The notes below the pieces were generated by a model. The model made no database searches, was not told the origin of the DNA, and saw only the letters and a list, made by a program, of their open reading frames with translations. A stretch of 64,000 nt of DNA from Candidatus Zhuqueibacterota bacterium (GTDB taxonomy: Bacteria; Zhuqueibacterota; Zhuqueibacteria; Thermofontimicrobiales; Thermofontimicrobiaceae), in contig JBMOPW010000004.1 in assembly GCA_049322915.1 (NCBI GenBank), positions 32,001 through 96,000 on the forward strand. Reading direction: 5' to 3'. A program made the translations under genes and the position numbers. Of the stretch, positions 2 through 36,037 are shown one piece after another (positions within the stretch are counted from its first letter, which is position 1; each line of letters starts with the position of its first letter).

Positions 2-232
2 ATGATCATCGCATTCGATGATATTGCCAAAGCCAATGACATTTCCCCGATGATCGTCGCCAATGGCATCTCGATTGCCTTGATAACCACGCTGTTTGGG
101 CTGATTGTCGCTATCATCATTCAGTTTTTTCACAACCTGTTTGTCTCGATGATCGATAGATTGATCATCGAAATGGAAGAAAGCTCTGTTGACCTGGTGG
201 ATAATTTAATTGAAATTGAAAAGTCAAAGTAA
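2..232 (+). CDS. MotA/TolQ/ExbB proton channel protein, C-terminal part (5' truncated by window edge)
   Basis: AF..IA...ISP..VANGISIALITTLFGLIVAI is the TM2-TM3 signature of ExbB/TolQ; two ExbD genes follow. Confidence 0.9.
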   Translation: MIIAFDDIAKANDISPMIVANGISIALITTLFGLIVAIIIQFFHNLFVSMIDRLIIEMEESSVDLVDNLIEIEKSK

Positions 233-258
233 ACAACACAGAGCACGGGGAGAAAGTT

Positions 259-660
259 ATGTTCGCTGATAGGAAAAAATCACGACCGTCCGAAATCCCA
301 ACAGCCTCGTTGGCAGACATTGCGTTTCTCATCCTGATATTTTTTCTGGTGACGACGACCATCGATGTGGACAAAGGGATCAGCCTGGCCCTGCCGCCTC
401 GGGGAGAGCATAAGGAAGTGCCCAGGAAAAATATATCGAGGCTTTTGATGGATGAGTCCGGGCGCGTGATGATCGATGACGAACTGGTCGAAATTCCGAT
501 GATCAAAAGTGACATTCAGACAAAGCTGCAGAAAAATCCGAATCTCATCATCTCGGTGAAGACAGCCCAGGATACGGAGTATCGCTATTTCGTACAGGTG
601 TTGGATCAGTTGAAACAGGCCAAAGCGACGCGGATTTCCATCGCTGAGCCGGAGCAGTGA
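259..660 (+). CDS. exbD: ExbD/TolR biopolymer transport protein
   Basis: EIPTASLADIAFLILIFFLVTTT has a single TM with the conserved Asp; C-terminal VLDQLKQA..RISIA; SD GGGGAG upstream. Confidence 0.92.
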   Translation: MFADRKKSRPSEIPTASLADIAFLILIFFLVTTTIDVDKGISLALPPRGEHKEVPRKNISRLLMDESGRVMIDDELVEIPMIKSDIQTKLQKNPNLIISVKTAQDTEYRYFVQVLDQLKQAKATRISIAEPEQ

Positions 661-715
661 TTCGCATGGATTCTCGGAAGACACGAAATATTACAGCAAA
701 GGGGAGAATGAAGCG

Positions 716-1138
716 TTGAGGTTCTACAAGAAAACAAGAGTTGAAGGGAGCATTCCTACTGCGTCGCTGCCGGACATTGTATTTATGCTTCTCATCTTTT
801 TTATGGTGACCACGCAGTTCAAGGAATTTCGGGGAATTCCAGTTCGGTTGCCTTCGGCGCAGCAGATCGAGAAGTTACCTGGCAAACGAAATGTGGCGTA
901 CATTTGGGCTGACGACCGCGGTCGCGTTTCAATTGATGATAAATTTGTCGATACCAGTGTGATTGCAAAAATCATGACTGATAAATGCAATGACCCATTG
1001 CATCCGTTGCGGGTTGTCTCCATGAAAATCGATCAAAATGTGAAAATGGGACTGGTGACCAAAATCCATGAGGAGTTGAGAAACGCAGGCGGCGGCGCGC
1101 TAAATCTCAATTATTCAACGAAAACGCTGGGTAAGTGA
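716..1138 (+). CDS. exbD: ExbD/TolR biopolymer transport protein (second copy)
   Basis: IPTASLPDIVFMLLIFFMVTT and IDQNVKMGLV motifs typical of the second ExbD in FCB-type exbB-exbD-exbD operons; TTG start after GGGGAG. Confidence 0.9.
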   Translation: MRFYKKTRVEGSIPTASLPDIVFMLLIFFMVTTQFKEFRGIPVRLPSAQQIEKLPGKRNVAYIWADDRGRVSIDDKFVDTSVIAKIMTDKCNDPLHPLRVVSMKIDQNVKMGLVTKIHEELRNAGGGALNLNYSTKTLGK

Positions 1139-2390: not shown

Positions 2391-2494
2391 ATTTTCTTTC
2401 ATGAACCCATGCCAGAGAGGGCGAATCGAAAATCATCGGATTGAATTCGGCCTCATGCTTGTACGATTGGAACGCGGGCAGCGGCGTCGATATG

Positions 2495-3865
2495 TCAGCT
2501 TAGCTTTGTGAATACGAATGGGAAGACCATCGTCACATTGCCGGATGAAATTGGCTCGAACTTAAGTCGCTGAACGAGACTGAGAATATCCCGTTCCAGT
2601 TGAGGATGGTCAATGGTCGATTCAAGAATTTTTGCGCTGGTCACAAATCCGTTCGCTGCAATGGTGAACTCGACGGAAATTTTACCGCGTAAATTGGGAT
2701 TTCGCTTGAGATACTTTTCGTAGAAATATGTAATTTGGCCCTGCCGCTGGAGAATGACCTCCATCACCGATTGATCAGTCCGTTGTCCCAACGCTTCAGC
2801 GCTGCCTGTCTTTTTGCTCGGCTTAACCAGGTCCACTTTCGCCTGTTTTGTGAGCGTCACCTGGGGCACGTCCTCATCCATGTCCGCAATGAAATCGTCG
2901 ATACCGCCGGAGCTGCCATCTCCACCGAGTCCGATAAGCTGATCCAGCGGATCGCCTGCATCTTTTGTGTTGCCCTTACCGACTTTCAGATTAGTCCCGC
3001 CACCCACAATGCTCTGTAAATCTGCAACCAGCCCGCGGTCGACAAGAGCGTCAACAATGGAACTGGCATTGTTCGAAGCGCCGGTGCCGCCGATGAGGCC
3101 TAACAAGCCCGATGAAGCAGCCCGATTGCCACCACTGTTTCCGCTGTTTCGCCGGCTTCGATTGCCTGAAGACGACTTGCTGTCTGAACTTTTTTGGCCA
3201 TCTTTATTCTCATCGGTGGTCTCAGTATTCGAAGATAGTGATTTCGTATCAAATTGTAAAGGTTCCGTGGGAGTGACATTGATGTATCGCGCCAGGCGTT
3301 CCGGGATTTTATCTAAATCGAGCTTTTGTTCGATGTTCACCTTATAATCTTTTAATGAATAGATGATAAGAGAATTCAGCGTTAGCAACACCAAAAAGAT
3401 CGACTTGAATACCAAATCCGATGTAAGATTTCGGACCATCGCCCGATGCCATGAAAACTCCGGCAGACTTGAAAGCTCAGCAGTGGTTTGCACGGCTACT
3501 TGTTTGAAATAGAAGTCGATTTTGACATCGTCAAAGGCAATGTAACCTTCCTTTCCCGGGGATAAGTTCAGCAATCGCGTGTTCCCCTTGCGAGGCAGGA
3601 TATCGTGCTTCAGCAAATCGTGGATCTGCAGCGTGGAATCCTGCATCGAAATTTTGCCATCAATGAACGGCTGAACATTCAGAACATAGGACCCGTTCAT
3701 CTGTTCGATCAGGGTATACCGCCGGGGATAATGCTGGCCGTACAGGGTGAGGTCATTGTCTCCTCGCTGGCCAATGGTGAATTTTCCGCCGGGCGGAATA
3801 ACCACCTGGCGTCCCTGACCAGCTTGCTCAATATGTAAAATAAGTTGTTTGTATGTTTTTGTCAT
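2495..3865 (-). CDS. GltG/PglI-like protein: FHA-like N-terminus, TM, Gly/Ser-rich linker, TonB C-terminal domain
   Basis: FTIGQRGDNDL (FHA-like); TM LVFKSIFLVLLTLNSLII; SSGLLGLIGG; YEKYLKRNPNLRGKISVEFTIAANGFV...FPFVF matches the AgmX/PglI-type TonB_C domain. Confidence 0.85.
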   Translation of the reverse strand: MTKTYKQLILHIEQAGQGRQVVIPPGGKFTIGQRGDNDLTLYGQHYPRRYTLIEQMNGSYVLNVQPFIDGKISMQDSTLQIHDLLKHDILPRKGNTRLLNLSPGKEGYIAFDDVKIDFYFKQVAVQTTAELSSLPEFSWHRAMVRNLTSDLVFKSIFLVLLTLNSLIIYSLKDYKVNIEQKLDLDKIPERLARYINVTPTEPLQFDTKSLSSNTETTDENKDGQKSSDSKSSSGNRSRRNSGNSGGNRAASSGLLGLIGGTGASNNASSIVDALVDRGLVADLQSIVGGGTNLKVGKGNTKDAGDPLDQLIGLGGDGSSGGIDDFIADMDEDVPQVTLTKQAKVDLVKPSKKTGSAEALGQRTDQSVMEVILQRQGQITYFYEKYLKRNPNLRGKISVEFTIAANGFVTSAKILESTIDHPQLERDILSLVQRLKFEPISSGNVTMVFPFVFTKLS

Positions 3866-3907
3866 AGAAGAATTTAATGTTTAGAAGTACCAATTCTATC
3901 GCGATTT

Positions 3908-4417
3908 TCATTCGGGTTTAATAGTTGCCAGAAGCATGTCGTTGTACCCGACTTTCCCACAGGTGTACATGATCTTTTTAATGACAAGATAGGGAAGTTC
4001 ACGGTCGCCCTGTATGGAAATTTTACCGGTGAATCCCATTTCTGTATTTATTTCGCCGACGCGTTCGCTGAGCTTTTTAATCTGCTGAAGTTCGGCCAGT
4101 AATTCGGGGATAATCAGGTCTGTTCCCTTTATAACTTTATCGACAGTGGTTACTTTTCTCCCATCGAACATAAGAGACTCCTCGGTGATAGCAATGATGG
4201 ATGTCGTTATTGGAAGTTTTTGCGCTGTTGACTCAGGCAAGTTTAAATCCGGAGCAACAGACATGATCTGCCCTTCCACCGAAAAGTTTTTTAAAAGAAA
4301 CACTAACAGAATCGTGAACATGTCGATCATGGAAGTCAGCTTCAAAGCAACTTCCCGGCGTTTCTTTTTCCTTGTAATGGGTTTGAATGATGTATTCAAT
4401 GATGTTAGATTTGCCAT
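3908..4417 (-). CDS. ExbD/TolR family protein, AglS-like
   Basis: LKLTSMIDMFTILLVFLLKNFS, LNLPEST and IQGDRELPYLVIKKIMYTCGKVGY. Confidence 0.88.
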   Translation of the reverse strand: MANLTSLNTSFKPITRKKKRREVALKLTSMIDMFTILLVFLLKNFSVEGQIMSVAPDLNLPESTAQKLPITTSIIAITEESLMFDGRKVTTVDKVIKGTDLIIPELLAELQQIKKLSERVGEINTEMGFTGKISIQGDRELPYLVIKKIMYTCGKVGYNDMLLATIKPE

Positions 4418-4451
4418 AATTTACTCTTGACATAGATGTGATTGAATTAAA

Positions 4452-4922
4452 CTAACCGGAAAGTGAAACGTTTAAGAATCCAGTTTCCCGGCATTGATCC
4501 ATAACCTTGATTACAACGTCATACTTAACCTTTGCATCTGGCGCGACAATAATGTCTTCAGCAAATGGGAATTGGCTTTTCAAATTCTTTAATTGTTCAG
4601 CCAATTTGCTGTAAATATACTCTGTTCCATTTTTGGCAATCGGATCGAACTTGATGTTCGTATCTTTGATCGCCTTGAGCTGAAAACCATCTTCTTTTAT
4701 CGCGAGTACAACCAGAATCAAGTTTTGCTTCGGCGTTTGGGTTATATCACCTCCCCCTTTGCTCAATGAAGGCAGGGAAAGTTCCACAACAGCAATCTGG
4801 ACAAAGGCTGCTGTCAGCAACAAAAACGGGATCAGAAGCAAAAAGATGTTCATGACAGCAATGATATTGACGTCGTCATCGCCTGCGGATCGGTCTCTTC
4901 CTAATGATTGCTTCAGATTCAT
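4452..4922 (-). CDS. ExbD/TolR family protein, AglQ-like (TM Asp replaced by Asn)
   Basis: VNIIAVMNIFLLLIPFLLLTAAF..IAVVELSLP; PDAKVKYDVVIKVMDQCRE. Confidence 0.85.
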   Translation of the reverse strand: MNLKQSLGRDRSAGDDDVNIIAVMNIFLLLIPFLLLTAAFVQIAVVELSLPSLSKGGGDITQTPKQNLILVVLAIKEDGFQLKAIKDTNIKFDPIAKNGTEYIYSKLAEQLKNLKSQFPFAEDIIVAPDAKVKYDVVIKVMDQCRETGFLNVSLSG

Positions 4923-4923
4923 G

Positions 4924-5550
4924 TCAATAACCTTTAACCATAATTAGACGTTTATAGATACGCGCGATATTCTGATTGATTTCATCGATGAGTTCATTGG
5001 TTTTTTCCTGAAAGATGGAATATCCGATCAGGCACGGAATGGCTGCGATCAGCCCGAATGCGGTGGTATTCATAGCCTGGGAAATGCCGTTGGAAAGAAG
5101 AGTTGCTTTCATGGCGGCATCAGCTTTGGCGACCGCTTCAAAGGAGGCGATCAGACCCGTGATTGTTCCCAGCAGGCCTAACAACGTGGCCACATTGGCA
5201 ATGGTGGACAGGTATTGCGTCCGCTTTTCGAGTTTGGGAATTTCAACCATGGCAGCAAGTTCAAATGCATTTTGTACATCGGCAGCAGATTTGCTCGGTT
5301 CTTCGAGTCCGGCCCGGGCAATATTAGGCAGAGCGGCTTTTGACACACTGCAAAATTCGACTGCGCTTTTTATATTATCCCGCTGGATCAAATCGAGCAC
5401 GCGATTCATGAATGCCGCAGTATCAATTCGGTTCTTTATCAAAATGAACATTGACCGTTCAATGATGATTGCAAAACCGGCGATCATGACCAAAAGAATG
5501 ACGTACATGAACGGTCCCCCGAGTCTGAAGAAAGTGACAATAGAATCCAA
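4924..5550 (-). CDS. MotA/TolQ/ExbB proton channel, AglR-like
   Basis: GGPFMYVI TM1; IANVATLLGLLGTITGLIASF; GISQAMNTTAFGL; TTG start with SD AAGGAGG. Confidence 0.92.
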   Translation of the reverse strand: MDSIVTFFRLGGPFMYVILLVMIAGFAIIIERSMFILIKNRIDTAAFMNRVLDLIQRDNIKSAVEFCSVSKAALPNIARAGLEEPSKSAADVQNAFELAAMVEIPKLEKRTQYLSTIANVATLLGLLGTITGLIASFEAVAKADAAMKATLLSNGISQAMNTTAFGLIAAIPCLIGYSIFQEKTNELIDEINQNIARIYKRLIMVKGY

Positions 5551-5708
5551 AGTGACAACCTCCTTGAATAGAATGAGATGGTGTTGATTATAAGCGAATA
5601 GTATGAATTAAAACTAGAAATTAGCTTTTTGATTGTAATGTCGATGTAAATAGTGGCAGAGGATATTCAGAAAAAATCCAGCCAGGATTACTTACCGCCC
5701 CGGAATGC

Positions 5709-6113
5709 CTACCAAAGAATGTGATCCCTATCTTTTTCCTGTTTAATCCTATCGCGACGCAGCGTGCTTTTTTCAACAGGTCTGAAAATGTGGGAGAAAA
5801 AATGCCGATTGATCAGGAGTCCATCGACGCGCGGATCAGTGCCCGGAATGATGAATACGGTTTGTGGTTTGGCGATTGAGCCATACACCTCAATACCCTT
5901 CAAAAACACTTTTACCTGGTCATTGGAAATGACAGCCTGATCCGGCTCGGTCGTCTTTTTATCCTGCATGGATTTTTCCTGCGCAGACAAGGGGGCTGCC
6001 GCAGGCTTTTCCGGTTCTTCAGCCAGGACATGAAGCGTCTGACTGATGAGTAACATCGAAAAAACAACGGCGCTGATTAATTTTTTATTGGCCTTGATGT
6101 GAGTGCTAATCAT
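5709..6113 (-). CDS. small exported protein, GltF/CglF-like
   Basis: Signal peptide, low-complexity linker, then IEVYGSIAKPQTVFII...RHFF resembling the GltF I-x-G-x-x-x-K-P motif; located between the large TPR gene and the motor genes; ATG at 6113 overlaps the upstream stop. Confidence 0.6.
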   Translation of the reverse strand: MISTHIKANKKLISAVVFSMLLISQTLHVLAEEPEKPAAAPLSAQEKSMQDKKTTEPDQAVISNDQVKVFLKGIEVYGSIAKPQTVFIIPGTDPRVDGLLINRHFFSHIFRPVEKSTLRRDRIKQEKDRDHILW

Positions 6114-9072
6114 GATCTGTTTCCCTTTGGCTTGCTGGCACAATCTTCGTGTTATTTGAATTGCCGGAACTGTTCAGGCCTGTGCCCAGCCCCAGTTCGA
6201 TAATTAATTTTTCCATTCGCTGCTTGCTATTTTCTACCCATTCGTTTTGAATGTTGTTCTTTTCAGCGCTGGCAACGTTGGCTTTGTAATATTCAAGCGC
6301 TTTTCTTTTCAATGGAATTACCTGCTGTTCATTCAATTTGAGCATGTATTCCTTTTTTTCCTGAGGATTCAGTTCGTCCGGTGTGGGCGAATTCAATACT
6401 GCCTCTGCCAGATTCTCAACGGTTATCCCTGATTTATAGAGAGCCGCAGTCGTCCAGTCCGCGACTTTGAATTTGCCGGCGTTGCCATATTCATTCAAAA
6501 CCACCTTGAGCAATTGGGTCTTTTTATTGAACGACACATCCAGCGGTGGAACAATTTGTACGGCCTTATATTTTTCAAAATTAATCTCAGCGATCATGTA
6601 CTGCGCCTTAGCCGGGATATATTCATCCACTTGTTTTCGGGCTGTTCTGAACTCTTTAAATTTAGTAATGACTTCACCAAATTCCTTCAACGCGTTGGTC
6701 GTACTCCCCTGGTTATGGGAAATCTCAGCAATATTGTAGAGGCTTTCGATATATTCATCCGGGTCGTCCAGCGGATATTCATTGACATATCGCTGGTACG
6801 TTTCTTTCGCTTTGTTCATCAGTTTCATCTGCTCGTAGCACTTGGCCGCATAGAGTAACGCGCTCGGAGCAAACTTGGACCTGGGATGCAGTTGAACCAT
6901 TTTGATATAGTTGTCAGAAGCGCGAACGAAGTTTTGCATCTTTTCATAAAGCAAGCCGGATTTGACATAGAGCTCATCGACAAATGAAATATTCGGCTGC
7001 TCATCAATCATCCGTTCGTACGATTTCACTGCTTTATCCAGATCGCCGGCTTGCTCAAATTGACCGGCAGCTTGTGTGAGCGCTGCTTTGGCAATTTCAG
7101 GATCCGATGTGTTAAAGGCAATGGTCAAAAATTTCACTGCCGCTTTTGTGGATTCCCCGGTGTCGCGCATCTGCTCGGCAAGTTTGAAATTTGCCGAAGC
7201 GACCATCGTCCTGGCCTTTTTGACATACTGCGTGGAGTCAGGGAAAGCGACGGCGATTTTATTGAACCACTTTTCCGATTCCTGATAATCCTTCAATTTG
7301 AAATAGGTCTGGGCGACCATGTTCATGGCCTGACCATAATAGGGGCTATCTTTGAATTTATCGTCGGCGACTTTCTCGTACGTCCTGGCAGCGAGACGCC
7401 ACTGCTGAAGCTCATACAACGTTTCGGCATATTTCATCAGCACTTCAATGAGGTTTTTGCTGTCGGGCAGATTTTTCACAAAGTCGTTGCAGGCTTTCAG
7501 TAAATTTGCCTGAGTCTCACAACTCACCTTGACCGGCGTGAGCGCGCCGCCACTGGCCAGGAAATCTTCGATATAGAACGTCAGCGAATCCTTTTTCGAA
7601 ACGGTCTTGAGCAATTGATAATAGGATAGAATGCGATTATATGCAGCAGCGTCCTTGTATTCTGTGCTATCGTAGAGCGTCATGACATTATCATACTCGA
7701 CCGCGGCTTTATCATATTCTTCGATGGAATAATAACATTCGGCCAGGTAGTAGTTCACCTTGGCGGCATTTTTTCCATGCTTGAATTTGTTCAGAAAATC
7801 TTCATATTTTTGAATGGCGATTTGATACTCGCGCTTCCTGTTTTTCTCCTGAGCCTGTGTCTGATAATAGGTCCCCAAAGAGAAAAGCATTTCCTCGGAG
7901 AGTTCAATGGCGTCGTTTCGCACTTTGCCTTCAGGATAATTGTTGATCCACTGGCTGTTAGGCCCGTATTTTTCAACGAACACGTCCTTCGCCTGAATCG
8001 CCTTTTCTTCCTCCATGTCCTTTTCGTAGCATTGAATGATCTCTTTTTGAATGAGCGGCGCCTGTGGATAAAGCGGGAAAAGCGCTAACAGGCTCTCGTA
8101 TGTTTGAATCGCCTCGGTGAAGAAATTTCGCTTCTTGTAGATTTCACTCATTCTGAGAAATACTTCGACGGAATAGCTCTGCGTGTCTTTCGCTGAGAAA
8201 AGCTTTTTTGCAGTCTCCGGGCCGCCGTATTCAGTCAGCGAATGGGCGATATATTCGATGGCCTCGTTCCGCACGTCTGCTTTGGTTTTCCCCAGAAGCT
8301 CGGTGTTCATGCTCTCGAGAAGTGAAATATCGCTGATTAAATAGATGTACGTGCTGATGGCATTGGAATAGTCATTGATATTGAAATATGCCCAACCCAT
8401 TTTATATAATGCCATATTGAAATAGGGATCGTTCCAGTGCTCCAAAAGGTAACTATAATGCTCGATGGCCTTGTGAAAATCGCGCTGGTTAAAAAAATGT
8501 TCGCCGAGTCGAAAATGGCCTTCTGAAATTTTAGCGCTCTGCGGCGTTTCAAACAACAGCCGCTGGAAATACTCTTTGGCTTTCTCCTGGTTCCCCTCGT
8601 CCAGGTGGCAGATGGCCAGCCGATACAACACTTTATCTTTAAATTGGATGTCCGGGTATTTTTCCAGTAACTGATAGCACAATTCAATCGTCTGCTTGTA
8701 GCTGACCCGCGGCAAGAAGGGTTCAGTCAGAATTTCGCCTTTTTCAAATTTGGTGATTTCCGTGTCGTATGTTTTCATGAATTGTTTGAATTCAAATTGG
8801 GACTTGCTGGCATGGGACTCAGCCAGCTCGAACAGCATGAATGGAATGAACGGTTCATCCGGATATTGTTCGATGATTTTGATATGATGGTCAATCGTCT
8901 TCGACAAGCCCTCAATATCGATGGAAGCGGTTGTATCCGCTAATTCATATTTCTGATTGGGTCGATAATTTTTCGACTTGCCGGCGCTGTTCTGCGCCTG
9001 ACTATTTTGAAAAACAACCCCTATCATTAAAAATGTAAATATGCTAATAGACTGAATTCGTGTTACTTTCAT
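6106..9072 (-). CDS. large exported TPR protein, GltD/AgmU-like
   Basis: Signal peptide; many TPRs (VLYRLAICH, HFRLGEHFF, ALYKMGWAYFN); C-terminal FNKKTQLL...Y..A....ADWTTAALY motif as in GltD-type proteins. Confidence 0.8.
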   Translation of the reverse strand: MKVTRIQSISIFTFLMIGVVFQNSQAQNSAGKSKNYRPNQKYELADTTASIDIEGLSKTIDHHIKIIEQYPDEPFIPFMLFELAESHASKSQFEFKQFMKTYDTEITKFEKGEILTEPFLPRVSYKQTIELCYQLLEKYPDIQFKDKVLYRLAICHLDEGNQEKAKEYFQRLLFETPQSAKISEGHFRLGEHFFNQRDFHKAIEHYSYLLEHWNDPYFNMALYKMGWAYFNINDYSNAISTYIYLISDISLLESMNTELLGKTKADVRNEAIEYIAHSLTEYGGPETAKKLFSAKDTQSYSVEVFLRMSEIYKKRNFFTEAIQTYESLLALFPLYPQAPLIQKEIIQCYEKDMEEEKAIQAKDVFVEKYGPNSQWINNYPEGKVRNDAIELSEEMLFSLGTYYQTQAQEKNRKREYQIAIQKYEDFLNKFKHGKNAAKVNYYLAECYYSIEEYDKAAVEYDNVMTLYDSTEYKDAAAYNRILSYYQLLKTVSKKDSLTFYIEDFLASGGALTPVKVSCETQANLLKACNDFVKNLPDSKNLIEVLMKYAETLYELQQWRLAARTYEKVADDKFKDSPYYGQAMNMVAQTYFKLKDYQESEKWFNKIAVAFPDSTQYVKKARTMVASANFKLAEQMRDTGESTKAAVKFLTIAFNTSDPEIAKAALTQAAGQFEQAGDLDKAVKSYERMIDEQPNISFVDELYVKSGLLYEKMQNFVRASDNYIKMVQLHPRSKFAPSALLYAAKCYEQMKLMNKAKETYQRYVNEYPLDDPDEYIESLYNIAEISHNQGSTTNALKEFGEVITKFKEFRTARKQVDEYIPAKAQYMIAEINFEKYKAVQIVPPLDVSFNKKTQLLKVVLNEYGNAGKFKVADWTTAALYKSGITVENLAEAVLNSPTPDELNPQEKKEYMLKLNEQQVIPLKRKALEYYKANVASAEKNNIQNEWVENSKQRMEKLIIELGLGTGLNSSGNSNNTKIVPASQRETDHD

Positions 9073-9096
9073 ATCCCCGTTGTCCAGTTGAATGAA

Positions 9097-10548
9097 TTAT
9101 TTTCCCTGAGCTTTTAATTCCATTTGCTTGAGGAACATTGCCCGTGACGTTCCGTACTCAGCGTATCCACGCCAGTTTTTCCGACGCTCTCTGCGCTCGG
9201 CTAATTTTTTGAGTGAATTAATATTATCCTGCATAAGAAGCAGATTATCTTTTTCACCTAACAGATTCTTTATCAGTTGCTCTCTGAAATCTCTCAGTTC
9301 TTTTTTCTCTTCGATCAAATAATGAGGCACATTCTCGCCGTACCCATTCATTGCGATGGCGTCTAACAGTTTGGTCTCCTCGATCAGGACTTTCACTTTG
9401 AGTTTTTCGACTCGATCTTCTTCGATTTCCAGACCGCTGTTTACCTTCTTGATGATATTGGGCACTTGAAAATCGTCCGGGTAATTTTCGACAATCGTTT
9501 GATACGATGTTATGGCTTCATCATATTGTCCCAGAGCAATGTTCGCCTGGCCCAAAAGAAAGTAGGCTTCTTCAGCATTTTCACTATCCGGGTACAGCTC
9601 GATCAATTTTTCCAGATATTTGATAACGTTCTCGTTGTCCTCTACTTTGAGATAGCACCAGCCTAAACCCAACAGAGCGTCCTGGTAATGTTCATGCCTG
9701 TCGGAAATCCCTAAGAATAATTTTGTGGCTGGCTTGAATGCGTTCAATTCATAATACATGAATCCCAATGTCAACCGGGCATTATCAATAATATTCCGTC
9801 TTTCCCCGCTGATGTTTGGCAGAACGATGATTTTGCGCAAATAGTCAATCGCAACAGAGACGTTTGATTTCTTCAAATATGCCAGAGCTGTGTTATACAG
9901 CGCCGCATCATAGTAGCTACTATGGCTATCAATTTTCTTGAGCAAGCTGATTGCCATATCATAATTTTTCAGATTGAAGTGACTCTGGCCGGCAAAATAG
10001 CTGGCCGCGTTAAGTAATTCTTTATCTTCGGGTGTTCTTTTTACCAGTGCAAAATAAACGCGCAGCGCCTGTTTATAGTCACTCTGATGAAAATAGGCTT
10101 TTTCCAGTCCAAGTAATGCCGCCGGAACCATGGGGCTCTTGGGAAATTTCTTGAGGAGATAGGCAAACATACGAGTGGATGCCACACCCAATTCCTCTTC
10201 AAAAAGACACTGACCCAGGTAATAAACCACTTCATCCAGTTTTTCATACGACGAATGGTAATCCATCAGGATTATCAGCTCGCGGGCGCAATCCCAGTAC
10301 GCGCCCTCTTTATAAAGCTCAATGCTGCTGCGAAGAATCTGATTTGCGGCATGCTCAATTTCCTTATCAATCTTCTTTTCGCTGTGTGATGGGTTTGGAT
10401 CTTGTGTGTCTGAAGCAAAATTCGTTCCTGAACTATGCGCCAGGACAGCTATATTAAATACGAATATTATGTTTAATGCATACACACTAACTCTTAAATA
10501 TTTTAATGTTTTGGGCATCTTCATGAGGGGCAAAAACCTGGTTGTCAT
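9097..10548 (-). CDS. exported TPR protein, GltC-like
   Basis: TPRs including NARLTLGFMYYEL...ALLGLGWCYL; C-terminal coiled coil; start codon uncertain (alternative Met codons nearby). Confidence 0.75.
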   Translation of the reverse strand: MTTRFLPLMKMPKTLKYLRVSVYALNIIFVFNIAVLAHSSGTNFASDTQDPNPSHSEKKIDKEIEHAANQILRSSIELYKEGAYWDCARELIILMDYHSSYEKLDEVVYYLGQCLFEEELGVASTRMFAYLLKKFPKSPMVPAALLGLEKAYFHQSDYKQALRVYFALVKRTPEDKELLNAASYFAGQSHFNLKNYDMAISLLKKIDSHSSYYDAALYNTALAYLKKSNVSVAIDYLRKIIVLPNISGERRNIIDNARLTLGFMYYELNAFKPATKLFLGISDRHEHYQDALLGLGWCYLKVEDNENVIKYLEKLIELYPDSENAEEAYFLLGQANIALGQYDEAITSYQTIVENYPDDFQVPNIIKKVNSGLEIEEDRVEKLKVKVLIEETKLLDAIAMNGYGENVPHYLIEEKKELRDFREQLIKNLLGEKDNLLLMQDNINSLKKLAERRERRKNWRGYAEYGTSRAMFLKQMELKAQGK

Positions 10549-10550
10549 TG

Positions 10551-11585
10551 TTACTTCTTCTCTTCTTGTTTTTTATCGAGAATATTTTTCATATTCTTGA
10601 GATCTTCATTTGCTTTTTCACGGCGCTTCCGAATTTCCTCCAGCTTCTCCAACTCTTCTTTTTGTTTCTGGCGTTCAAGCTTGGATGTCTTGTCAAAATA
10701 TTTGAAGACAGAAAATCGATGGGTCACCCCAACAGCGACTTTCCACGTGAAATATTCTTTATGAAACACGTCTTGATTTTTCAGAGAATCATAATCTGTG
10801 AAAGCAAAATCAAAGGCAATGTCAATTGTATTTTTCCATGGTCCCAAAAATTTTACACCTGGAGTAATTCGCATGGAATTTTGATTGAATGGCACGAGAT
10901 CGGAATTGTTAGTGAATATTTCCCCGGAGTATTCTGTATAAAATTGGAGTGAGCGAATCGAAAATTTGAAGCCCGAACCAATGAACAACTGGTCAATGTC
11001 CGCTTGAAAATAACGATCATAAATGCTATGATCGATGTAGCCAACATTGAAATTCCACATGAGCGGAAAATTAGGGAATAGTTTGATGAAATCGAGCGAC
11101 AACAGAGCTCGTAACTCCCATGCAGGTTTCGATGAGGAAAAAATTTCGTACGGAACGTTGGGAACTTCGGCCGTCGGAAATTTGTAATAGCCCATTAAAC
11201 CCAGTTTAAAACCGTCTGTAGACAAGGGAGTCAAATATTTTAAACCGAGTTTTGTGTCGCCAATTCGTCCTAAAATATGGTACTGATCATCCTGATAAGG
11301 CACGAAATTGGCGATGAGCTCCAGATAGTGGGCTAATCCCACGGTTGCATGTAAATTGACCGCATAATATTTAGCCAACTGCTCCGGCCCTGTCTGCTCA
11401 AAGAAAGTAGAAATATTAGCTCCTACAAATATATCGGTCGGATTGACCGGCTCGGCTGATAATACTCTCCATAATCCCTTTCCCCCGAACATTGAGACTT
11501 GAGAATATACTTTTTCTGAGAAACTGAAAAATACCAATGCGATGATAAAGATGATGAAAGTATTTCTCTTCAATGCGCTACCCAT
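10551..11585 (-). CDS. exported protein, probable outer-membrane beta-barrel with charged C-terminal coiled coil
   Basis: Signal peptide; alternating aromatic strands (IGDTKLGLKY, NFNVGYI, FIGSGFKFS, MRITPGVKF); K/E-rich tail. Confidence 0.65.
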   Translation of the reverse strand: MGSALKRNTFIIFIIALVFFSFSEKVYSQVSMFGGKGLWRVLSAEPVNPTDIFVGANISTFFEQTGPEQLAKYYAVNLHATVGLAHYLELIANFVPYQDDQYHILGRIGDTKLGLKYLTPLSTDGFKLGLMGYYKFPTAEVPNVPYEIFSSSKPAWELRALLSLDFIKLFPNFPLMWNFNVGYIDHSIYDRYFQADIDQLFIGSGFKFSIRSLQFYTEYSGEIFTNNSDLVPFNQNSMRITPGVKFLGPWKNTIDIAFDFAFTDYDSLKNQDVFHKEYFTWKVAVGVTHRFSVFKYFDKTSKLERQKQKEELEKLEEIRKRREKANEDLKNMKNILDKKQEEKK

Positions 11586-12260
11586 GATTAAATTAAATTG
11601 ATTTTGAACCTATGATGAATTAAATAAAAATTTTAAAGGAAGTAAACAATCGAAATTTAATATAAATGACCTTTAATTGCAAGGACATTTTTAGTAATTA
11701 ATTCTTAAAAATGTTTAAATTAACTAATATGGTAATTTACAAAAAATTAACAATATAGATTTTAGGATTAAAAATGGTTAGCCTCCAGCTTGCAAGAGAA
11801 AATTGTGGCCATATTCAGTATCCTGTTTTTTGATCATATTGTTTAATTTATGGTTAAGAATGAGTTAGATATTTTTTCAAAATTAATGTATTGTTAATCA
11901 ATTATTATGCCACAAAAAATATACAAGGCTTTTTTTTGCAATACTTGTATTTCTTTGAAATTTAAAGAATTGGTGATGAAGTAAATGTTACAGGAAAAAT
12001 TCATTTCTCAGGCCGCCAGAGAGGTACTGCTTCAAATTGATACAATCAGGAGAGGTTGTCTTGATTTGATTAAAAATTTTCAAATTAGTAATTGCGTGAG
12101 TGCCTGTAATGTTTTAAATTATCTTTCACTGCGAATGAGTTTTTCATACCCATTTCATTCTGATATATAAAGTACATAAATGTAATTTCGTCGACAGGCA
12201 TTGTCCGAACTCGAAAGAAATGTGAATGGGTAGTTTATTGAAAAAAACTTCAGAAGTTAT

Positions 12261-12289
12261 GCAAACCATTTTTCGATTGTTGTGTCTAA
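12261..12289 (+). promoter_or_regulatory. ECF-type promoter GCAAAC-N16-TGTCTAA (probable autoregulation)
   Basis: AAC and GTC elements with ECF spacing, 24 nt upstream of the ECF sigma gene. Confidence 0.5.
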
Positions 12290-12313
12290 CTATTCGGATT
12301 CAAGGAATGACGG

Positions 12314-12889
12314 ATGGAGAAGAGCGAAAAACTGTTAATTCTGAAAGCACAGCGCGGTAGCCAGAGCGCGTTCGAATCGCTGGTAGCCAATTATGATGCT
12401 CGAGTACTGGGCTTAATCTATTCCATGTTGAATAATTGGGAAGATGCACGCGACGTGTACCAGGATGTGTTTTTAAAAGTCTTCAAGTCCATAGGTAATT
12501 TTCGATTTCAGAGTGAGTTTTACACCTGGCTCTACCGAATTGTTGTGAATGAGTGCATCAATTACAGAAGAAAGAGATCACAAAAAATGCACGATTCTAT
12601 CGATGATGTGGTGGAACAGATGGAGAGTGATTTGAAATTCGTGCATGATGAAGTAATTTCCAATCCGGAGCGGAACATGCTCGAAAAAGAATTACAACGC
12701 GAAATCAGTCAGGGCATTGAACATTTGTCGCCGAAACAAAAAGCCGTGTTTACATTGCGGCATTACCACGGTTATAAATTGTCAGAGATCGCTGAGATTA
12801 TGAACTGCTCTGAAGGGACGATAAAAAATTACCTGTTCCGGGCCCTTCAAAAGATGAAGGAACAGTTGCGTGACTATTATCAAAATTGA
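12314..12889 (+). CDS. ECF RNA polymerase sigma factor
   Basis: DARDVYQDVFLKVF...FYTWLYRIVVN (region 2); LSPKQKAVFTLR..GYKLSEIAEIMNCSEGTIKNYLFRA (region 4). Confidence 0.96.
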   Translation: MEKSEKLLILKAQRGSQSAFESLVANYDARVLGLIYSMLNNWEDARDVYQDVFLKVFKSIGNFRFQSEFYTWLYRIVVNECINYRRKRSQKMHDSIDDVVEQMESDLKFVHDEVISNPERNMLEKELQREISQGIEHLSPKQKAVFTLRHYHGYKLSEIAEIMNCSEGTIKNYLFRALQKMKEQLRDYYQN

Positions 12890-12899
12890 ATGGTGAATC

Positions 12900-13847
12900 A
12901 TGAAGAGCTGCAAACATTTCAGGAATATGATATGGCTCAGGATATATGGGGAGCTTTCCGAGCAGGAGAATGCTGAACTCGCTGAGCACATTGCGCAGTG
13001 CACCTCATGCCAGTTGGATTATGAAGAAGCGCTGAGTATGAACAAGGTTTTGGATAAGAAAATCCAGTACGCCCCGGATGAAAATGTGCTGAAAGAATTG
13101 CGGAATGATCTCCATTTACGGCTATTGTCGGTCAGGAAGCCGAACCGACAGATCGCCTGGACTGAACGACTCTGGCGCATTATTTCACTTGATTTTTCGC
13201 CCTTCATTAGAATGGGAACGGCTGTTGCTTTAGTGATCGTTGGAATGTTCATCGGCAGCAAGTATTTTCAGATGAAAGGTGGCAGTCCTGATGCGCTAAA
13301 AAAAGTATCGGATAATTCAATCCCGAAAGTGACCGGCGTTGAATTCATAGATTTTAATCCGGCGACACATCAGATTGAAATCACCTTCAATACGATGCAG
13401 GATGTCACTGTGGAAGGTGATCTGAATACGCCCGAGATTCAGAAAATATTAGCTCAGATGCTGATGGCTGACAATAGGCCAAATTTCAAGCTACGGACAG
13501 TGAGGGCGCTGGAGAGCAGCGCGCGCCTGGAAAATGATGTGCTTCAGGCTCTGGCGACGCTCGTTGAGACAGATGAGAATCCGGGCATTCGCTTGAAAGC
13601 GATGAAAGTGCTGACGGCCGCGCCCGTAACGCCCAAGATGAAAAATCTAATGACAAAAGTAGCCGTCAAAGTGTTGTTAAATGATACCAATTCCGCAATG
13701 CGAATAGAAGCGTTCAATTACCTCGGCAGGATCAATAACGGTTACATGGAATCTGATGTGTGCCATGCAGTAAAAGCAGATTCGTCCGAGTATATCCGAA
13801 CCAAATCATCGCATCTTTTGGATCGAAGAGAAAATCCACAATTTTAA
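12900..13847 (+). CDS. zinc-binding anti-sigma factor with TM and periplasmic HEAT-like repeats
   Basis: HxxxCxxC (HIAQCTSC); TM AVALVIVGMFIG; repeats DNRPNFKLRTV, DENPGIRLKAM, DTNSAMRIEAF. Confidence 0.88.
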   Translation: MKSCKHFRNMIWLRIYGELSEQENAELAEHIAQCTSCQLDYEEALSMNKVLDKKIQYAPDENVLKELRNDLHLRLLSVRKPNRQIAWTERLWRIISLDFSPFIRMGTAVALVIVGMFIGSKYFQMKGGSPDALKKVSDNSIPKVTGVEFIDFNPATHQIEITFNTMQDVTVEGDLNTPEIQKILAQMLMADNRPNFKLRTVRALESSARLENDVLQALATLVETDENPGIRLKAMKVLTAAPVTPKMKNLMTKVAVKVLLNDTNSAMRIEAFNYLGRINNGYMESDVCHAVKADSSEYIRTKSSHLLDRRENPQF

Positions 13848-13887
13848 TAAACCACATGTTACATAAATCGAATTGGAGGAACAAACC

Positions 13888-15150
13888 ATGAGAAACAAAT
13901 TCATTATCGTGCTGTTGCTTGGATTTCTTCTGCCCGTCTTAGTGGTCGCGCAGGAATTGAAGAAGGAAGATAAATACTATGTGGCTGATATCACAAAGGA
14001 ATTCGATGTCTCCGGAGGCGGGAATCTCATCATGGAGAAAATTCGCGGCGATGTCTATGTGACCACCTGGGACAACGCAAAAGTGAAGATCCACGAAATC
14101 CGAAAAATGGATGTGTACACGAAAGAGGAGGCCAACGCGCTGTTAAAAGAAAGCGCCACAATTTACAAACAAGAAGGCAATACCATTAAAATTGGAACAG
14201 GGAATGAATACCGGTCATACATGCAAAGTCGCTTTGAAATCACCCTGCCGAGGGAATTCAATGTCACAATCGGCACAAGTGGAGGTGATATTTCGGTGTC
14301 TGATTTGCGCGGGAAAGTGATCCTGAAAACCTCGGGTGGCGACATTGAGCTGCTGGCAATCGATGGTGAGGTCGAGGCTACTACGTCCGGTGGCGACGTG
14401 ACTGTAAAAAAGAATACACAAATGGTAACGATCAAAACATCCGGCGGTGACATTGAGATTATCGACGTCGAAGGAGCGGTTGAAGCCCATACATCCGGCG
14501 GCGATATTGTCGTCAAGAATAACAAGGCCATTGTCAATGTCGCCACGTCCGGTGGGGATATTGAGCTATTTGATGTCGGTGAAAAAATTTCAGCTCGCAC
14601 GTCCGGTGGAGATATTCTGGTTGATGGGACCAAAGGCAGCCTGAATGTTTCAACTTCTGGCGGTGACGTCACACTAAAAAATATTGGTGATGTGATAGAT
14701 GCTGGCACGTCCGGCGGAGATATTGAAGCGGATAATGTGAAAAACGGTATCAGTGCAAAGACTTCCGGCGGTGATATTAGCCTGGTTAATATTCAGGGAT
14801 ATATTGAAGCACAGACATCCGGCGGCGATGTGGATGCCGAGATGCAGTTGACTGATTTTTCGAAAGATCATCATGTGGAAATTGGCTCTTCCGGAGGTGA
14901 TATCACGCTGTATATTCCTGAAAATCTTCCGGCTACCATCAATGCGGAAATCAAACTCAGCGATTCATCCATGCGCGATTACAATATCTATTCAGACTTC
15001 TCCATAAAAATCGAAAAAAGCGATGATACTGAAAAGGGAAATCGGCGTCGCAATGAAGTGATTCATGGACAGGGTAAAATCAACGGCGGCGGCGATTTAA
15101 TCCAATTGACTACTTCCAATGGAAATATTAACATCAAAAAATTGAGATAA
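13888..15150 (+). CDS. exported DUF4097-type beta-strand repeat protein
   Basis: SD GGAGGA before ATG 13888; signal peptide; 12 (T/S)SGGD(I/V) repeats; ends INGGG..I.L.TSNGNI.I. Confidence 0.88.
   Translation: MRNKFIIVLLLGFLLPVLVVAQELKKEDKYYVADITKEFDVSGGGNLIMEKIRGDVYVTTWDNAKVKIHEIRKMDVYTKEEANALLKESATIYKQEGNTIKIGTGNEYRSYMQSRFEITLPREFNVTIGTSGGDISVSDLRGKVILKTSGGDIELLAIDGEVEATTSGGDVTVKKNTQMVTIKTSGGDIEIIDVEGAVEAHTSGGDIVVKNNKAIVNVATSGGDIELFDVGEKISARTSGGDILVDGTKGSLNVSTSGGDVTLKNIGDVIDAGTSGGDIEADNVKNGISAKTSGGDISLVNIQGYIEAQTSGGDVDAEMQLTDFSKDHHVEIGSSGGDITLYIPENLPATINAEIKLSDSSMRDYNIYSDFSIKIEKSDDTEKGNRRRNEVIHGQGKINGGGDLIQLTTSNGNINIKKLR
14275..14904 (+). repeat. intragenic coding repeats, about 19 aa period (TSGGD)
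   Basis: In-frame, synonymously diverged repeats inside the DUF4097-like gene. Confidence 0.85.
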
Positions 15151-36000: not shown

Positions 36001-36037
36001 GAGTGCATGTAAGAATGAACCATGAGTGAATTTTCAT
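33026..36037 (-). CDS. large exported TPR protein (YbgF/BamD-like repeats)
   Basis: Signal peptide; more than 20 repeats of the form YP.S...A.Y..G; directly abuts the barrel gene. Confidence 0.9.
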   Translation of the reverse strand: MKIHSWFILTCTLFLCHSASLSQIHQSQEEQAFTAARGIYQDGLYKMAVDQLSDFLSQYPNSSHSASATFYLAESYFNLKDYSRAVSVYQNLLTSSPAIEHREQANLRVGEAYFHLNQFSRAKEVLNKFILTSSDGNLLDDAYYWLAESEYRLGLKKEASLHYAQVFNLYPKSSLAEYAIYSVGFIFESDSEFEKAITTYKKLLNDYPNSALISVCQYRIGFSAYGSKNYDLSIKLLASAVARYPDDKLRGRAEFISGEAYFKLNNFSKAIEQYKKVIRGALDPEAADDCQYGLGWAYIKLENCAEAVKEFDTLIRTYPESQFRPLSLYHKGRCYNRMGETTLARQTLIGLIEQYPTNAKVADALYEIASIDFSQGNLGPARTFFKKVMTQFPSSNLAPEAGFMVGECFRDEGNCPEAEMAYQSVLERYRNSTIAPLAYLKYGWCLLQRDQYQAALSKFNAILNDYPDFVQTDHALFWKAEVLFNLHELAQAAKTYQLLIAQFPKSSKLAESHYGLGWCNFKQTNFKAAAENFNQAIRLSSDESMKGDAMIRRGDVLFNLKDYEGAIADYRKAQKLNIDSSIKAEAQFQIGVSLFRRADYHAAANEFQLVISLYSTSAWAAEAQFMTGKSYFQDGRYDLALTEFQRVLANFPASQFIDDAVYAQADCYYNLGKYDEAVQQYFQLLQHHQESPLVDDAISGIQWAMLQQGETDEALRFGDEYIQKNPDSELAANLSGRKAELLFNLNKYRDAIVAYEALLNSYPRSEPASAAWYHIGECHLNLNERAQAIDAFNRQANLYQDSPSSIEALLKVGSIYQGQSDYSSAIEVFKRASEKSAGTENEGRALLQVGICFLHLNQIDNAEAVLQQVQKKFNGTETGLKAQLEIGKIGLRRGLYPDTLTALQSVVDAHSSDVSAEAQYWIGQVYFNQKDYSRAAREFLKIKYLFPNVQHWIVRGVFQAAVSNENQGQYGEARLLYRTILEQFQDAEFQQKAQLKLQEIVGK

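Follow-up and report, generated by a model that had tools for sequence, protein, structure and literature searches.

The Agl-Glt core complex comprises gltC, gltD, gltE, gltG, aglR, aglQ and aglS together with one additional gene (Luciano et al. 2011, PMC3169522). Its carriers include gamma-, beta- and some deltaproteobacteria as well as Fibrobacter succinogenes, a member of the FCB group (PMC3169522), so the statement in a preliminary description of the DNA studied here that compact versions occur in other lineages agrees with the literature. In gammaproteobacteria the genes follow the order C-D-E-X-R-Q-S-G, in Fibrobacter the order C-D-R-(Q)-S-G, and the published products measure 933–1292 aa for GltD, 205–242 aa for AglR and 162–185 aa for AglS, with non-myxobacterial GltG homologues of 308–371 aa (PMC3169522). 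The same authors state that motility requires more than the core genes (PMC3169522). GltF has been reported as restricted to Myxococcales and Bdellovibrionales, as have GltA, GltB, GltH, GltK and GltI. A review places a membrane Asp in both AglQ and AglS, and a published AlphaFold model docks the central FHA domain of GltG on the AglR pentamer and wraps GltG residues 371–543 around GltD. Here, we describe an operon that probably represents the Agl-Glt-type core complex in a variant form specific to the KSB1/Calditrichota lineage, that is, an envelope-spanning machine driven by the proton motive force.

The window analyzed, by which we mean the whole stretch of 64,000 nucleotides, contains eight tightly packed, co-directional open reading frames (g1–g8) running on the minus strand from position 11585 to 2495. 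They had been described as an outer-membrane protein (g1), two TPR proteins (g2 and g3), a small exported protein (g4), a TolQ-like protein (g5), two TolR-like proteins (g6 and g7) and an FHA-TM-TonB_C protein (g8), closed by a terminator, and this order was confirmed by ORF calling, Pfam matches, predicted folds and a 15-pair stem. Neighboring genes are spaced by 1 to 42 nt, save for 158 nt between g4 and g5 and an overlap of g3 with g4. The stem belongs to a bidirectional intrinsic terminator at 2353–2390, located 105 nt past the g8 stop and common to a convergent gene at 1806–2327; with an A run on one side and a T run on the other, it can be read as a terminator on both strands. Upstream of g1 lies an AT-rich region of 728 nt (11586–12313, minus strand; GC fraction 0.33 in the interval 11001–12000) that should contain the operon promoter, and a promoter scan there yielded consensus-level matches only. 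Beyond it, divergent from the operon on the plus strand, family matches identified an ECF sigma factor, a zf-HC2 anti-sigma factor and a LiaG-family protein (12314–15150). The same three genes border the operon, arranged in one of two ways, at 10 of the 37 related loci and are possibly tied to it functionally.

The gene order is retained in all 37 related KSB1/Calditrichota loci, in which g8 identity falls to about 33%; an arrangement kept so consistently is far beyond chance. The full set is present at 22 of these loci, and the remaining 15 hold collinear subsets of it. Across a phylum sample whose tallies take in the unpublished genomes G144 and G088, g8 found a match at E ≤ 1e-10 in 147 of 151 genomes and in every one of the 105 high-quality genomes, and 99 genomes had matches that include the FHA part (counted from the table). 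Within its class, the operon is near-constant and single-copy.

The same genome also encodes a paralogous cluster, hereafter C32, which is phylum-wide and whose layout resembles the published core complex of Fibrobacter. It begins with TPR proteins of 967 and 1546 aa, continues with a small protein, one TolQ-like and two TolR-like proteins, and ends with a protein of 395 aa that has an AgmX tail (NF033768); it directly follows genes for ParA, ParB, an M23 (DipM/EnvC-like) peptidase and a bactofilin. Using phmmer, we paired g5 (E = 2.1e-40), g6 (8.7e-11), g7 (2.6e-28) and g8 (1.8e-20) with this cluster, and g3 with its 1546-aa TPR protein (E = 1.1e-62). The small proteins that occupy the same position in the two clusters are likewise homologous (hhalign probability 95.6%, E = 1.1e-8, 42 columns).

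The clearest link to the Agl-Glt family is the last gene, g8 (2495–3865, minus strand, 456 aa). Pfam assigned it TonB_C (25.2 bits; cut-off 24.6) and reported no FHA match at E ≤ 0.01; in the AF2 model, residues 1–124 match FHA domains, with FHA structures making up all top Foldseek hits. This domain is followed by a TM helix (139–171), a long linker with conserved motifs at about 250–330 and a C-terminal region (341–455) that matches the TonB C-terminal domain 6sly, so the layout first read from the letters is borne out at the level of fold. The terminal domain is of a particular type: against NF033768, the model of the AgmX/PglI C-terminal domain, g8 scored 86.2 bits by hmmscan and 89.9 bits in a genome search (cut-off 40). 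That cut-off was exceeded in none of 14 control genomes, and the three ordinary TonB-like matches of the genome reached 21.8–25.5 bits. The best full-length family for g8 was Myxococcus GltG (NF033760; 93.9 bits, E = 8.8e-27), although this score is far below the equivalog cut-off of 650. Because the alignment pairs g8 residues 23–453 with model positions 220–646 of 650, the FHA domain of g8 corresponds to the central FHA of GltG (190–329, just before the TM helix), the one placed on the motor in the Myxococcus model. These sequence comparisons support classifying g8 as specifically GltG/AgmX-like, as had been proposed for the last gene.

Ahead of g8, a TolQ-like gene and two different TolR-like genes stand together, as in the core complex. 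g5 (4924–5550, minus strand, 208 aa) matched Pfam MotA_ExbB at 100.7 bits; its best NCBIfam model was tolQ, at 83.1 bits against a cut-off of 221, and its best sequence match in the PDB was TolQ, over nearly the full length (residues 15–187, E = 7.2e-13). Judged from its sequence, g5 is likely a TolQ/AglR-like stator subunit. g6 (4452–4922, minus strand, 156 aa) and g7 (3908–4417, minus strand, 169 aa) matched Pfam ExbD at 70.2 and 52.5 bits and the tolR model at 39.3 and 19.3 bits, respectively, versus a cut-off of 127.3. The two are mutually dissimilar, each with a counterpart of its own in C32. At the membrane position where TolR and ExbD have Asp, g6 carries Asn25, with Asn in 35 of 35 orthologues, and g7 retains Asp32, with Asp in 36 of 36; the g7 family profile gathered 1581 representatives at E ≤ 1e-10. 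Within the genome, the only relatives at E ≤ 1e-3 were the two TolR-like proteins of C32 for g6 and the 168-aa TolR-like protein of C32 for g7 (phmmer). In a tree of TolQ-like proteins built with own-genome and E. coli references, the window and C32 types formed one clade (100/99), apart from five other ExbB/MotA paralogues of the genome and from E. coli TolQ and ExbB. Tree and phmmer results agree with the earlier view that this motor is separate from the ordinary exbB-exbD-exbD genes nearby.

The periplasmic components resemble those of the core complex chiefly in their place in the operon. g2 (9097–10548, minus strand, 483 aa) and g3 (6106–9072, minus strand, 988 aa) both belong to TPR families in Pfam, and no lipobox Cys was read in either sequence. 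g2, whose N-terminus is hydrophobic and whose C-terminal third reads as charged and helix-like, sits at the GltC position of the published order, and it had been labeled gltC. Similarity to GltC was weak and did not establish this label: g2 scored 27.5 bits (E = 1.2e-6) on the GltC model, whose cut-off is 450, and it was not among the three matches of that model genome-wide, the best of which was the 967-aa TPR protein of C32 at 50 bits; the model had no match in 14 control genomes. g3 is an exported TPR scaffold with conserved non-TPR regions at its N- and C-terminus, and in an alignment of 26 sequences its invariant residues are concentrated at 820–945. It has the position and size of GltD (988 aa versus 933–1292 aa), a likeness of TPR content, position and size. 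The GltE model NF033758 gave 68 matches genome-wide, with neither g2 nor g3 among them, in keeping with the reported lack of an obvious gltE; this model also matched in 12 of 14 control genomes and so mostly detects generic TPR repeats. g4 (5709–6143, minus strand, 144 aa; an ATG 30 nt downstream may be the true start) is exported and small, and a 23-sequence alignment shows the conserved core EKPQ..F.IPG..P..D...I.R.FF. Placed after the TPR genes and before the TolQ-like gene, it occupies the position of the additional gene of the core complex. It matched no family in Pfam or NCBIfam, and with GltF reported only from Myxococcales and Bdellovibrionales, its designation as gltF was not supported.

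The operon opens with g1 (10551–11585, minus strand, 344 aa), an exported protein for which neither Pfam nor NCBIfam returned a match. Its AF2 model (pLDDT 81.5, pTM 0.72) comprises a 12-stranded barrel followed by a charged C-terminal helix of roughly 45 residues (299–343). The best Foldseek matches in the PDB were FapF, the COG4313 channel 4rl8, Tsx, NanC and OmpG, and its structural look-alikes in the Atlas were Phenol_MetA_deg-type barrels. It is therefore the fold, not Pfam, that bears out the reading of the first gene as an outer-membrane protein. Of the 24 related loci that have space for g1, 23 yielded a match to it.

Taken together, the operon presents a complete-looking set that comprises an inner-membrane motor, its transducer, a TPR scaffold in the periplasm and a barrel in the outer membrane, in line with the trans-envelope machine that had been proposed. 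The Agl-Glt interpretation was supported in part: the motor distinct from ordinary exbBDD, the GltG-like transducer and the missing gltE stood, and the gltC and gltF labels were not established. The genes, their folds and family matches, their synteny, their paralogy with C32 and the Asn/Asp pattern were observed; the protein contacts, stoichiometry, direction of energy flow and cellular role set out below are inferred. g5 would form an inner-membrane channel around a heterodimer of g6 and g7, in which only g7 would supply a protonatable Asp. g8 would bind this motor through its TM helix and membrane-proximal FHA-fold domain, and conformational work would cross the periplasm along its linker and AgmX/TonB-like end domain. 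The latter may engage g3 and g2 as TPR scaffolds together with g4 as a small adaptor, with the g1 barrel anchoring the scaffold to the outer membrane through its periplasmic C-terminal helix. The mechanical work so delivered would act on the outer membrane or on a cargo that travels along the envelope. We consider gliding less likely than a housekeeping task in the envelope, since the operon is near-constant and single-copy in its class and lacks both adhesin and gliding-specific partners; the task could be to tether the outer membrane, to remodel it or to serve transport.

One such task would make the operon, alone or with its C32 paralogue, a functional equivalent of Tol-Pal, serving outer-membrane attachment and constriction at division by means of a TolQ-TolR-TolA-like motor, CpoB/YbgF-like TPR proteins and an outer-membrane anchor. 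This proposal concerns role and is compatible with core-complex homology; we regard it as possible and hold it tentatively. TolQ is the closest solved relative of g5 and also its best NCBIfam model, in both systems the motor is coupled to a transducer that spans the membrane once and has a long periplasmic linker, and the 96.3% complete genome yielded neither TolB nor Pal over cut-off. Consistent with the same role are the near-constancy of the operon, its recurrent envelope-stress-type ECF neighbor and the genes that precede C32. Moreover, g2 and g3 contain YbgF-type (TPR_6) repeats and exceed the cut-off of the YbgF/CpoB model TIGR02795 (96.6 and 137.9 bits versus 90.1), but these scores are sums over 4–7 TPR stretches in proteins 4 to 8 times the length of the 119-position model. 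Further points set the operon apart from Tol-Pal: g5–g7 fall far short of the TolQ and TolR equivalog cut-offs, the TolR-like subunits are two and unlike, the TPR proteins are giant, g8 combines an AgmX/PglI-type end with an FHA domain, a barrel stands where Tol-Pal has the Pal lipoprotein, and the operon encodes no partner resembling TolB or Pal. Being phylum-wide and located beside division genes, C32 is also the better Tol candidate of the two clusters, which leaves the window copy unexplained. An extended version, which we consider doubtful, would have both clusters replace Tol-Pal in this FCB-related lineage: the ancestral job of the core complex would be Tol-like and proton-powered, managing the outer membrane as cells grow and divide, and the window copy would be a specialized second machine acting through g1, driven by an asymmetric stator with one proton-accepting Asp and controlled by the neighboring ECF envelope-stress module. 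If so, the gliding and spore-coat motors of Myxococcus would have branched off from a machine for division and the envelope.

An improbable alternative is a surface-motility or transport machine of the Myxococcus Agl-Glt/Nfs kind that moves an adhesin or polymer along the cell surface. With the M. xanthus Agl-Glt machinery and its Nfs sporulation paralogue, the operon shares a TolQ/TolR-type motor, a GltG-like transducer whose FHA domain lies beside the TM helix, a long periplasmic segment that is disordered yet conserved (compare GltG 371–543), a TPR scaffold of giant size and outer-membrane parts that resemble porins. The similarity to GltG, the operon layout and the suggestion by the Nfs authors that the core might serve as basal machinery for transport would fit this explanation, as would an MglB-like gene that lies beside a small GTPase gene elsewhere in the genome; however, MglAB-like pairs also match in the non-gliding control genomes of Thermus and Deinococcus. 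The N-terminal FHA domain of GltG, docked on GltI in the model, is missing from g8; the genome search found no match to the CglB adhesin; GltE is lacking; and GltJ matches (23–42 bits) are confined to the shared tail domain. Neither in nor beside the operon is there an adhesin or polymer-export gene, GltA/B/H/K and GltI are reported only from the two myxobacterial and bdellovibrio orders, and the core genes are by themselves reported to be insufficient for motility. The M. xanthus genes also lie in three clusters, as opposed to one operon here. Finally, an ordinary ExbB-ExbD-ExbD-TonB energizer of outer-membrane uptake with accessory TPR genes would share the Pfam TonB_C, ExbD and MotA_ExbB matches, the MotA/ExbB-ExbD-type proton channel and the TonB-like fold, and the genome holds several ExbB-ExbD(-ExbD)-TonB sets, one of them with a TPR protein and a phosphate-binding-like protein, but this explanation is highly improbable given that g1 is not a 22-stranded plugged TonB-dependent transporter and no such partner is present, that the FHA domain and AgmX-type tail of g8 are missing from the ordinary TonB-like proteins of the genome, that g6 and g7 match no other ExbD at E ≤ 1e-3 (C32 aside) and that g5 is set apart from the ordinary ExbB paralogues.

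The variant core complex is the preferred reading. The operon by itself does not reveal its function, and most carriers are uncultured; nonetheless, this lineage offers a compact and nearly universal version of the core, in which one operon encodes all envelope layers, the outer-membrane part included, and which can be compared directly with its sister cluster in the genome. From the clean pairing of an Asn-type with an Asp-type TolR, the stator is predicted to be a heterodimer that has a single proton site. Such features provide concrete structural and genetic predictions and hint at a housekeeping envelope role of the core.

Set against the published core complex, the operon fits in both order and sizes. 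It is likewise an eight-gene operon in which TPR proteins of ~500 and ~950–1000 aa lead, a small gene, a TolQ-like gene and two TolR-like genes follow, and a single-pass protein with an AgmX/PglI-type TonB-like end comes last; the Fibrobacter-type layout itself is seen in the second cluster of the host genome. For the TPR proteins the likeness is one of position and size, and they differ in having no lipobox Cys. The window operon also differs in that it has no GltE-like small TPR protein, Asn replaces the membrane Asp in g6, at variance with the Asp reported for both AglQ and AglS, and g8 keeps a cytoplasmic FHA-fold domain, for which the published GltG homologues of 308–371 aa would be too short if they are also to hold the rest of the protein. 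Core complexes as a kind are already known; new here are the absence of GltE, the conserved Asn/Asp pair of TolR-like proteins and a dedicated outer-membrane barrel that leads the operon.

The preliminary description reported eight co-directional minus-strand genes between positions 2495 and 11585, and ORF calling recovered them with the sizes it gave. From first to last they are g1 (10551–11585, 344 aa), g2 (9097–10548, 483 aa), g3 (6106–9072, 988 aa), g4 (5709–6143, 144 aa), g5 (4924–5550, 208 aa), g6 (4452–4922, 156 aa), g7 (3908–4417, 169 aa), and g8 (2495–3865, 456 aa). Intergenic gaps are 1–42 nt, apart from the 158 nt that separate g4 from g5; g3 and g4 overlap. A hairpin whose 15-pair stem is bordered by an A tract and a T tract (2353–2390) is common to the operon and a convergent plus-strand ORF of 173 aa (1806–2327), which has no family match. 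Pfam assigned TPR families to g2 and g3, MotA_ExbB to g5, ExbD to g6 and g7, and, marginally, TonB_C to g8; it returned no family for g1 or g4 and no FHA match in g8.

We assessed g8 using family models and a structural model. g8 scored 86.2 bits on the NCBIfam AgmX/PglI C-terminal domain model (cut-off 40). On the equivalog model for Myxococcus GltG it reached 93.9 bits (E = 8.8e-27), far under the cut-off of 650 for that model, with residues 23–453 aligned to model positions 220–646 of 650. The AgmX/PglI model proved selective, as it exceeded its cut-off in none of 14 control genomes, and four of its seven matches in the source genome passed; the three ordinary TonB-like proteins of this genome reached 21.8–25.5 bits. 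Two stand-alone proteins with AgmX/PglI tails are also encoded in the genome (contig C12, 50328–51581, and contig C16, 267202–268374; 82.7 and 76.8 bits, over the cut-off), with no motor genes beside either.

In the structural model of g8, residues 1–124 form a confident beta-sandwich for which the top PDB matches are FHA domains without exception, followed by a transmembrane (TM) helix (139–171), a low-confidence stretch (175–339), and a confident TonB-type C-terminal domain (341–455). Alignments showed that the low-confidence stretch is strongly conserved, with invariant G253, L255, G262, D272, L274, and L310, as would be expected if it folded against a partner protein. In a published AlphaFold study, Myxococcus GltG is given two FHA domains: an N-terminal one (1–114) docked on GltI, and a second one (190–329) that immediately precedes the TM helix and rests against the AglR pentamer from the cytoplasmic side. 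The periplasmic portion of GltG is described there as disordered, with segment 428–543 wound around GltD, and the protein ends in a TonB-like domain. Because the GltG model alignment covers positions 220–646, the FHA domain of g8 corresponds to the motor-binding FHA domain of GltG. In contrast to GltG, g8 lacks the GltI-binding FHA domain, which fits a system without GltI.

We modelled g1 with AlphaFold2 from 24 orthologues (pLDDT 81.5); the predicted fold is a 12-stranded beta-barrel that leads into a helix of ~45 residues. Its Foldseek neighbours include FapF, the COG4313 channel, Tsx, NanC, and OmpG, and its look-alikes in the Atlas are Phenol_MetA_deg-type barrels, some of which carry an OmpA domain fusion in Fibrobacterota, Myxococcota, and Bdellovibrionota. 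The folds of g1 and g8 thus uphold the earlier calls of an outer membrane protein and an FHA–TM–TonB_C protein, respectively. Two distant g1-like barrel genes lie elsewhere in the genome (contig C44, 89072–92030, E = 7.1e-10; contig C16, 222139–225472, E = 7e-6), each with a neighbouring gene that encodes an OmpA-domain protein of ~500 aa.

Outside the window, the source genome encodes a paralogous motor cluster on contig C32 (160650–171906; locus L053, 4650–15906). It starts immediately downstream of parA, parB, an M23 peptidase gene, and a bactofilin gene, and encodes, in order, TPR proteins of 967 and 1546 aa, a 139-aa exported protein, a TolQ-like protein of 217 aa, two TolR-like proteins (178 and 168 aa), and a protein of 395 aa that has an AgmX tail but no FHA; aspS comes next. 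Each of g3–g8 finds its best or only in-genome relative in this cluster, with the exception of g3. Comparison with the C32 counterparts gave E-values of 2.1e-40 for g5, 8.7e-11 for g6, 2.6e-28 for g7, and 1.8e-20 for g8; g3 matched its counterpart at 1.1e-62 and is closer to an orphan paralogue on contig C7 (217908–220961, 1017 aa, E = 3.1e-144).

We then asked how the motor relates to TolQ and to ordinary ExbB proteins; the preliminary description had set it apart from the ordinary exbBDD genes at 2–1138. The nearest solved structure to g5 is TolQ (E = 7.2e-13, residues 15–187), ExbB giving a weaker and only partial match. When 32 TolQ-like proteins were placed in a tree, the window and C32 types grouped in one clade (support 100/99) that excluded five other paralogues of the genome, as the earlier distinction implied, and also the TolQ and ExbB proteins of E. 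coli. The tree has an arbitrary root and long branches beyond this clade. Neither g6 nor g7 matched any other ExbD of the genome at E ≤ 1e-3. The genome does contain several ordinary ExbB–ExbD(–ExbD)–TonB sets, including one at the start of the window (exbB, cut by the window start, then exbD and exbD; 2–1138, plus strand, convergent with the operon), followed by a 77-aa plus-strand ORF with no family match (1176–1409). The exbD pair and the 173-aa gene hold their place in closer relatives (e.g., loci L008, L009, L013, L017, L019, and L044). We rejected the reading of the operon as one more ordinary ExbBD–TonB set, given the FHA domain and AgmX tail of g8 and the separation of g5, g6, and g7 from the ordinary ExbB and ExbD proteins of the genome.

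The two TolR-like proteins differ at the membrane position that carries Asp in E. coli TolR and ExbD and in the six ordinary ExbD proteins of the genome: the residue there is Asn in g6 and Asp in g7. Asn is present in all 35 g6 orthologues and Asp in all 36 g7 orthologues. The C32-type first TolR-like protein (L053, 13470–14006 in this genome) has Asn in 25 of 27 sequences and Asp in two, and the second one of the source genome keeps Asp. From this conserved pattern we predict that g6 and g7 form a heterodimer in which a single site accepts protons. Since a review gives a membrane Asp in both AglQ and AglS, the pattern appears to be a difference from Myxococcus.

The TPR proteins g2 and g3 gave no Glt-specific signal with the GltE and GltC models, and no GltD model surfaced in the NCBIfam scans. 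The GltE model, which rings in 12 of the 14 control genomes, returned 68 matches in the source genome, none of them g2 or g3, and GltJ produced tail-level matches only. The GltC model had three matches in the genome and none in the 14 control genomes; the best was the 967-aa TPR protein of the C32 cluster (50 bits), and g2, at only 27.5 bits, was absent from these genome-wide matches. The best in-genome relative of g2 is a 1003-aa protein, very rich in TPR_6 repeats, encoded at 33026–36037 on the minus strand (E = 1.6e-44). Its gene has a diacylglycerol-kinase-like gene on one side and, on the other, an unannotated 560-aa ORF and then prmA. For g4, we rejected the proposed assignment as GltF: no similarity supports it, and Luciano et al. 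(2011, PMC3169522) report that GltF is confined to Myxococcales and Bdellovibrionales. The g4 family aligned weakly with the single C32 small protein sequence (hhalign probability 11%, E = 0.0027). Profile–profile comparison with 30 C32-type orthologues gave a probability of 95.6% (E = 1.1e-8, 42 columns), and on this profile similarity g4 and the C32 small protein are homologous. Of 81 genomes sampled from the phylum, 67 have the C32-type small protein.

Next, we examined the conservation of the operon. A scan of species-representative genomes identified 37 related loci, all from KSB1/Calditrichota-like MAGs. All eight genes occur in identical order in 22 of them; in one, g8 runs past the locus end; in another (L037), g2–g8 are conserved and the g1 position is occupied by a 313-aa ORF (2478–3419) with no similarity to g1 even at E ≤ 10; and the remaining 13 are truncated at contig ends, with collinearity preserved among the genes that they contain. 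No differing gene order was found in any of the 37 loci. The named sequences among 98 g8 homologues (E ≤ 1e-5) are labelled KSB1, Calditrichota, or similar. Within the phylum, a g8 match at E ≤ 1e-10 was found in 147 of 151 genomes, a sample that takes in two unpublished genomes (G144 and G088), and in 105 of 105 high-quality genomes. By our own table count, 99 of the phylum sample have a match starting within the first 30 residues and thus including the FHA part, the remaining matches covering the tail half only.

The g7-type family is large. A profile search returned 3130 matches, close orthologues saturating the list, and among the best 120 the named ones were all of KSB1/Calditrichota type, with no Agl-named protein. 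Of 1.84 billion representatives, an exhaustive profile search picked out 3155 at E ≤ 1e-3 and, at the stricter E ≤ 1e-10, 1581. Among 20 of these looked up, four clusters were labelled, as Nitrospinota, Candidatus Azotimanducaceae (a gammaproteobacterial family), and twice "bacterium", with no Myxococcus label. These labels show that the g7-type family is widely spread.

With regard to function, we weighed gliding against a housekeeping role in the envelope. The genome has an MglB-like gene (82 bits on a Thermus MglB model, below its cut-off) adjoining a gene for a 194-aa small GTPase (contig C14, 71500–72650; L102, 691–1839); the pair is unlinked to the window operon and the C32 cluster. CglB had no match in the genome, and in the papers examined, the literature on gliding in KSB1 held only gld genes or a reference-list entry. 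The genome, which is 96.3% complete, has no TolB or Pal match over the cut-off. Divergently upstream of g1 lie plus-strand genes for an RpoE/SigW-like ECF sigma factor, a zf-HC2/HEAT anti-sigma factor, and a 425-aa LiaG-family protein (12314–15150). This trio adjoins the operon in 10 of the 37 loci: in five it is upstream and divergent (L008, L009, L010, L017, and L019), and in the other five (L021, L024, L025, L027, and L030) it is downstream and shares the strand of the operon. Because the system is near-universal and single-copy, lacks adhesin and export genes, occurs where Tol–Pal is missing, and has an envelope-stress neighbour, a housekeeping envelope function seems more plausible than gliding.

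Finally, we compared the operon with the Agl–Glt core complex. As Luciano et al. (2011, PMC3169522) outline it, the complex comprises gltC, gltD, gltE, gltG, aglR, aglQ, aglS, and one gene without a myxobacterial homologue. These genes share a single genomic region in gamma- and betaproteobacteria, Geobacter, and Fibrobacter succinogenes, and according to the authors, the complex is not sufficient for motility. Published core gene sets include Sde_2954–2961, Maqu_1595–1602, and Fisuc_1892–1897. The table in that paper implies a gammaproteobacterial order of GltC (550–692 aa), GltD (933–1016), GltE (162–263), an unlisted locus tag, AglR (217–242), AglQ (169–188), AglS (162–185), and GltG (321–334), and a Fibrobacter order of GltC (746 aa), GltD (1292), AglR (212), an unlisted tag, AglS (164), and GltG (308). 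The literature that we searched contained neither an account of the operon for KSB1 or Calditrichota nor any later functional work on the core complex. The gene layout of the C32 cluster corresponds to that of Fibrobacter. The window cluster follows the general order, with g2 in the place of GltC, g3 in that of GltD, and g4 in that of the extra gene; unlike the core complex, it has no GltE, adds the barrel protein g1, and bears an FHA domain on its GltG-like protein. The operon is real, its layout and key domains are homologous to those of the known core-complex system, and it is a new lineage-specific version of that system.
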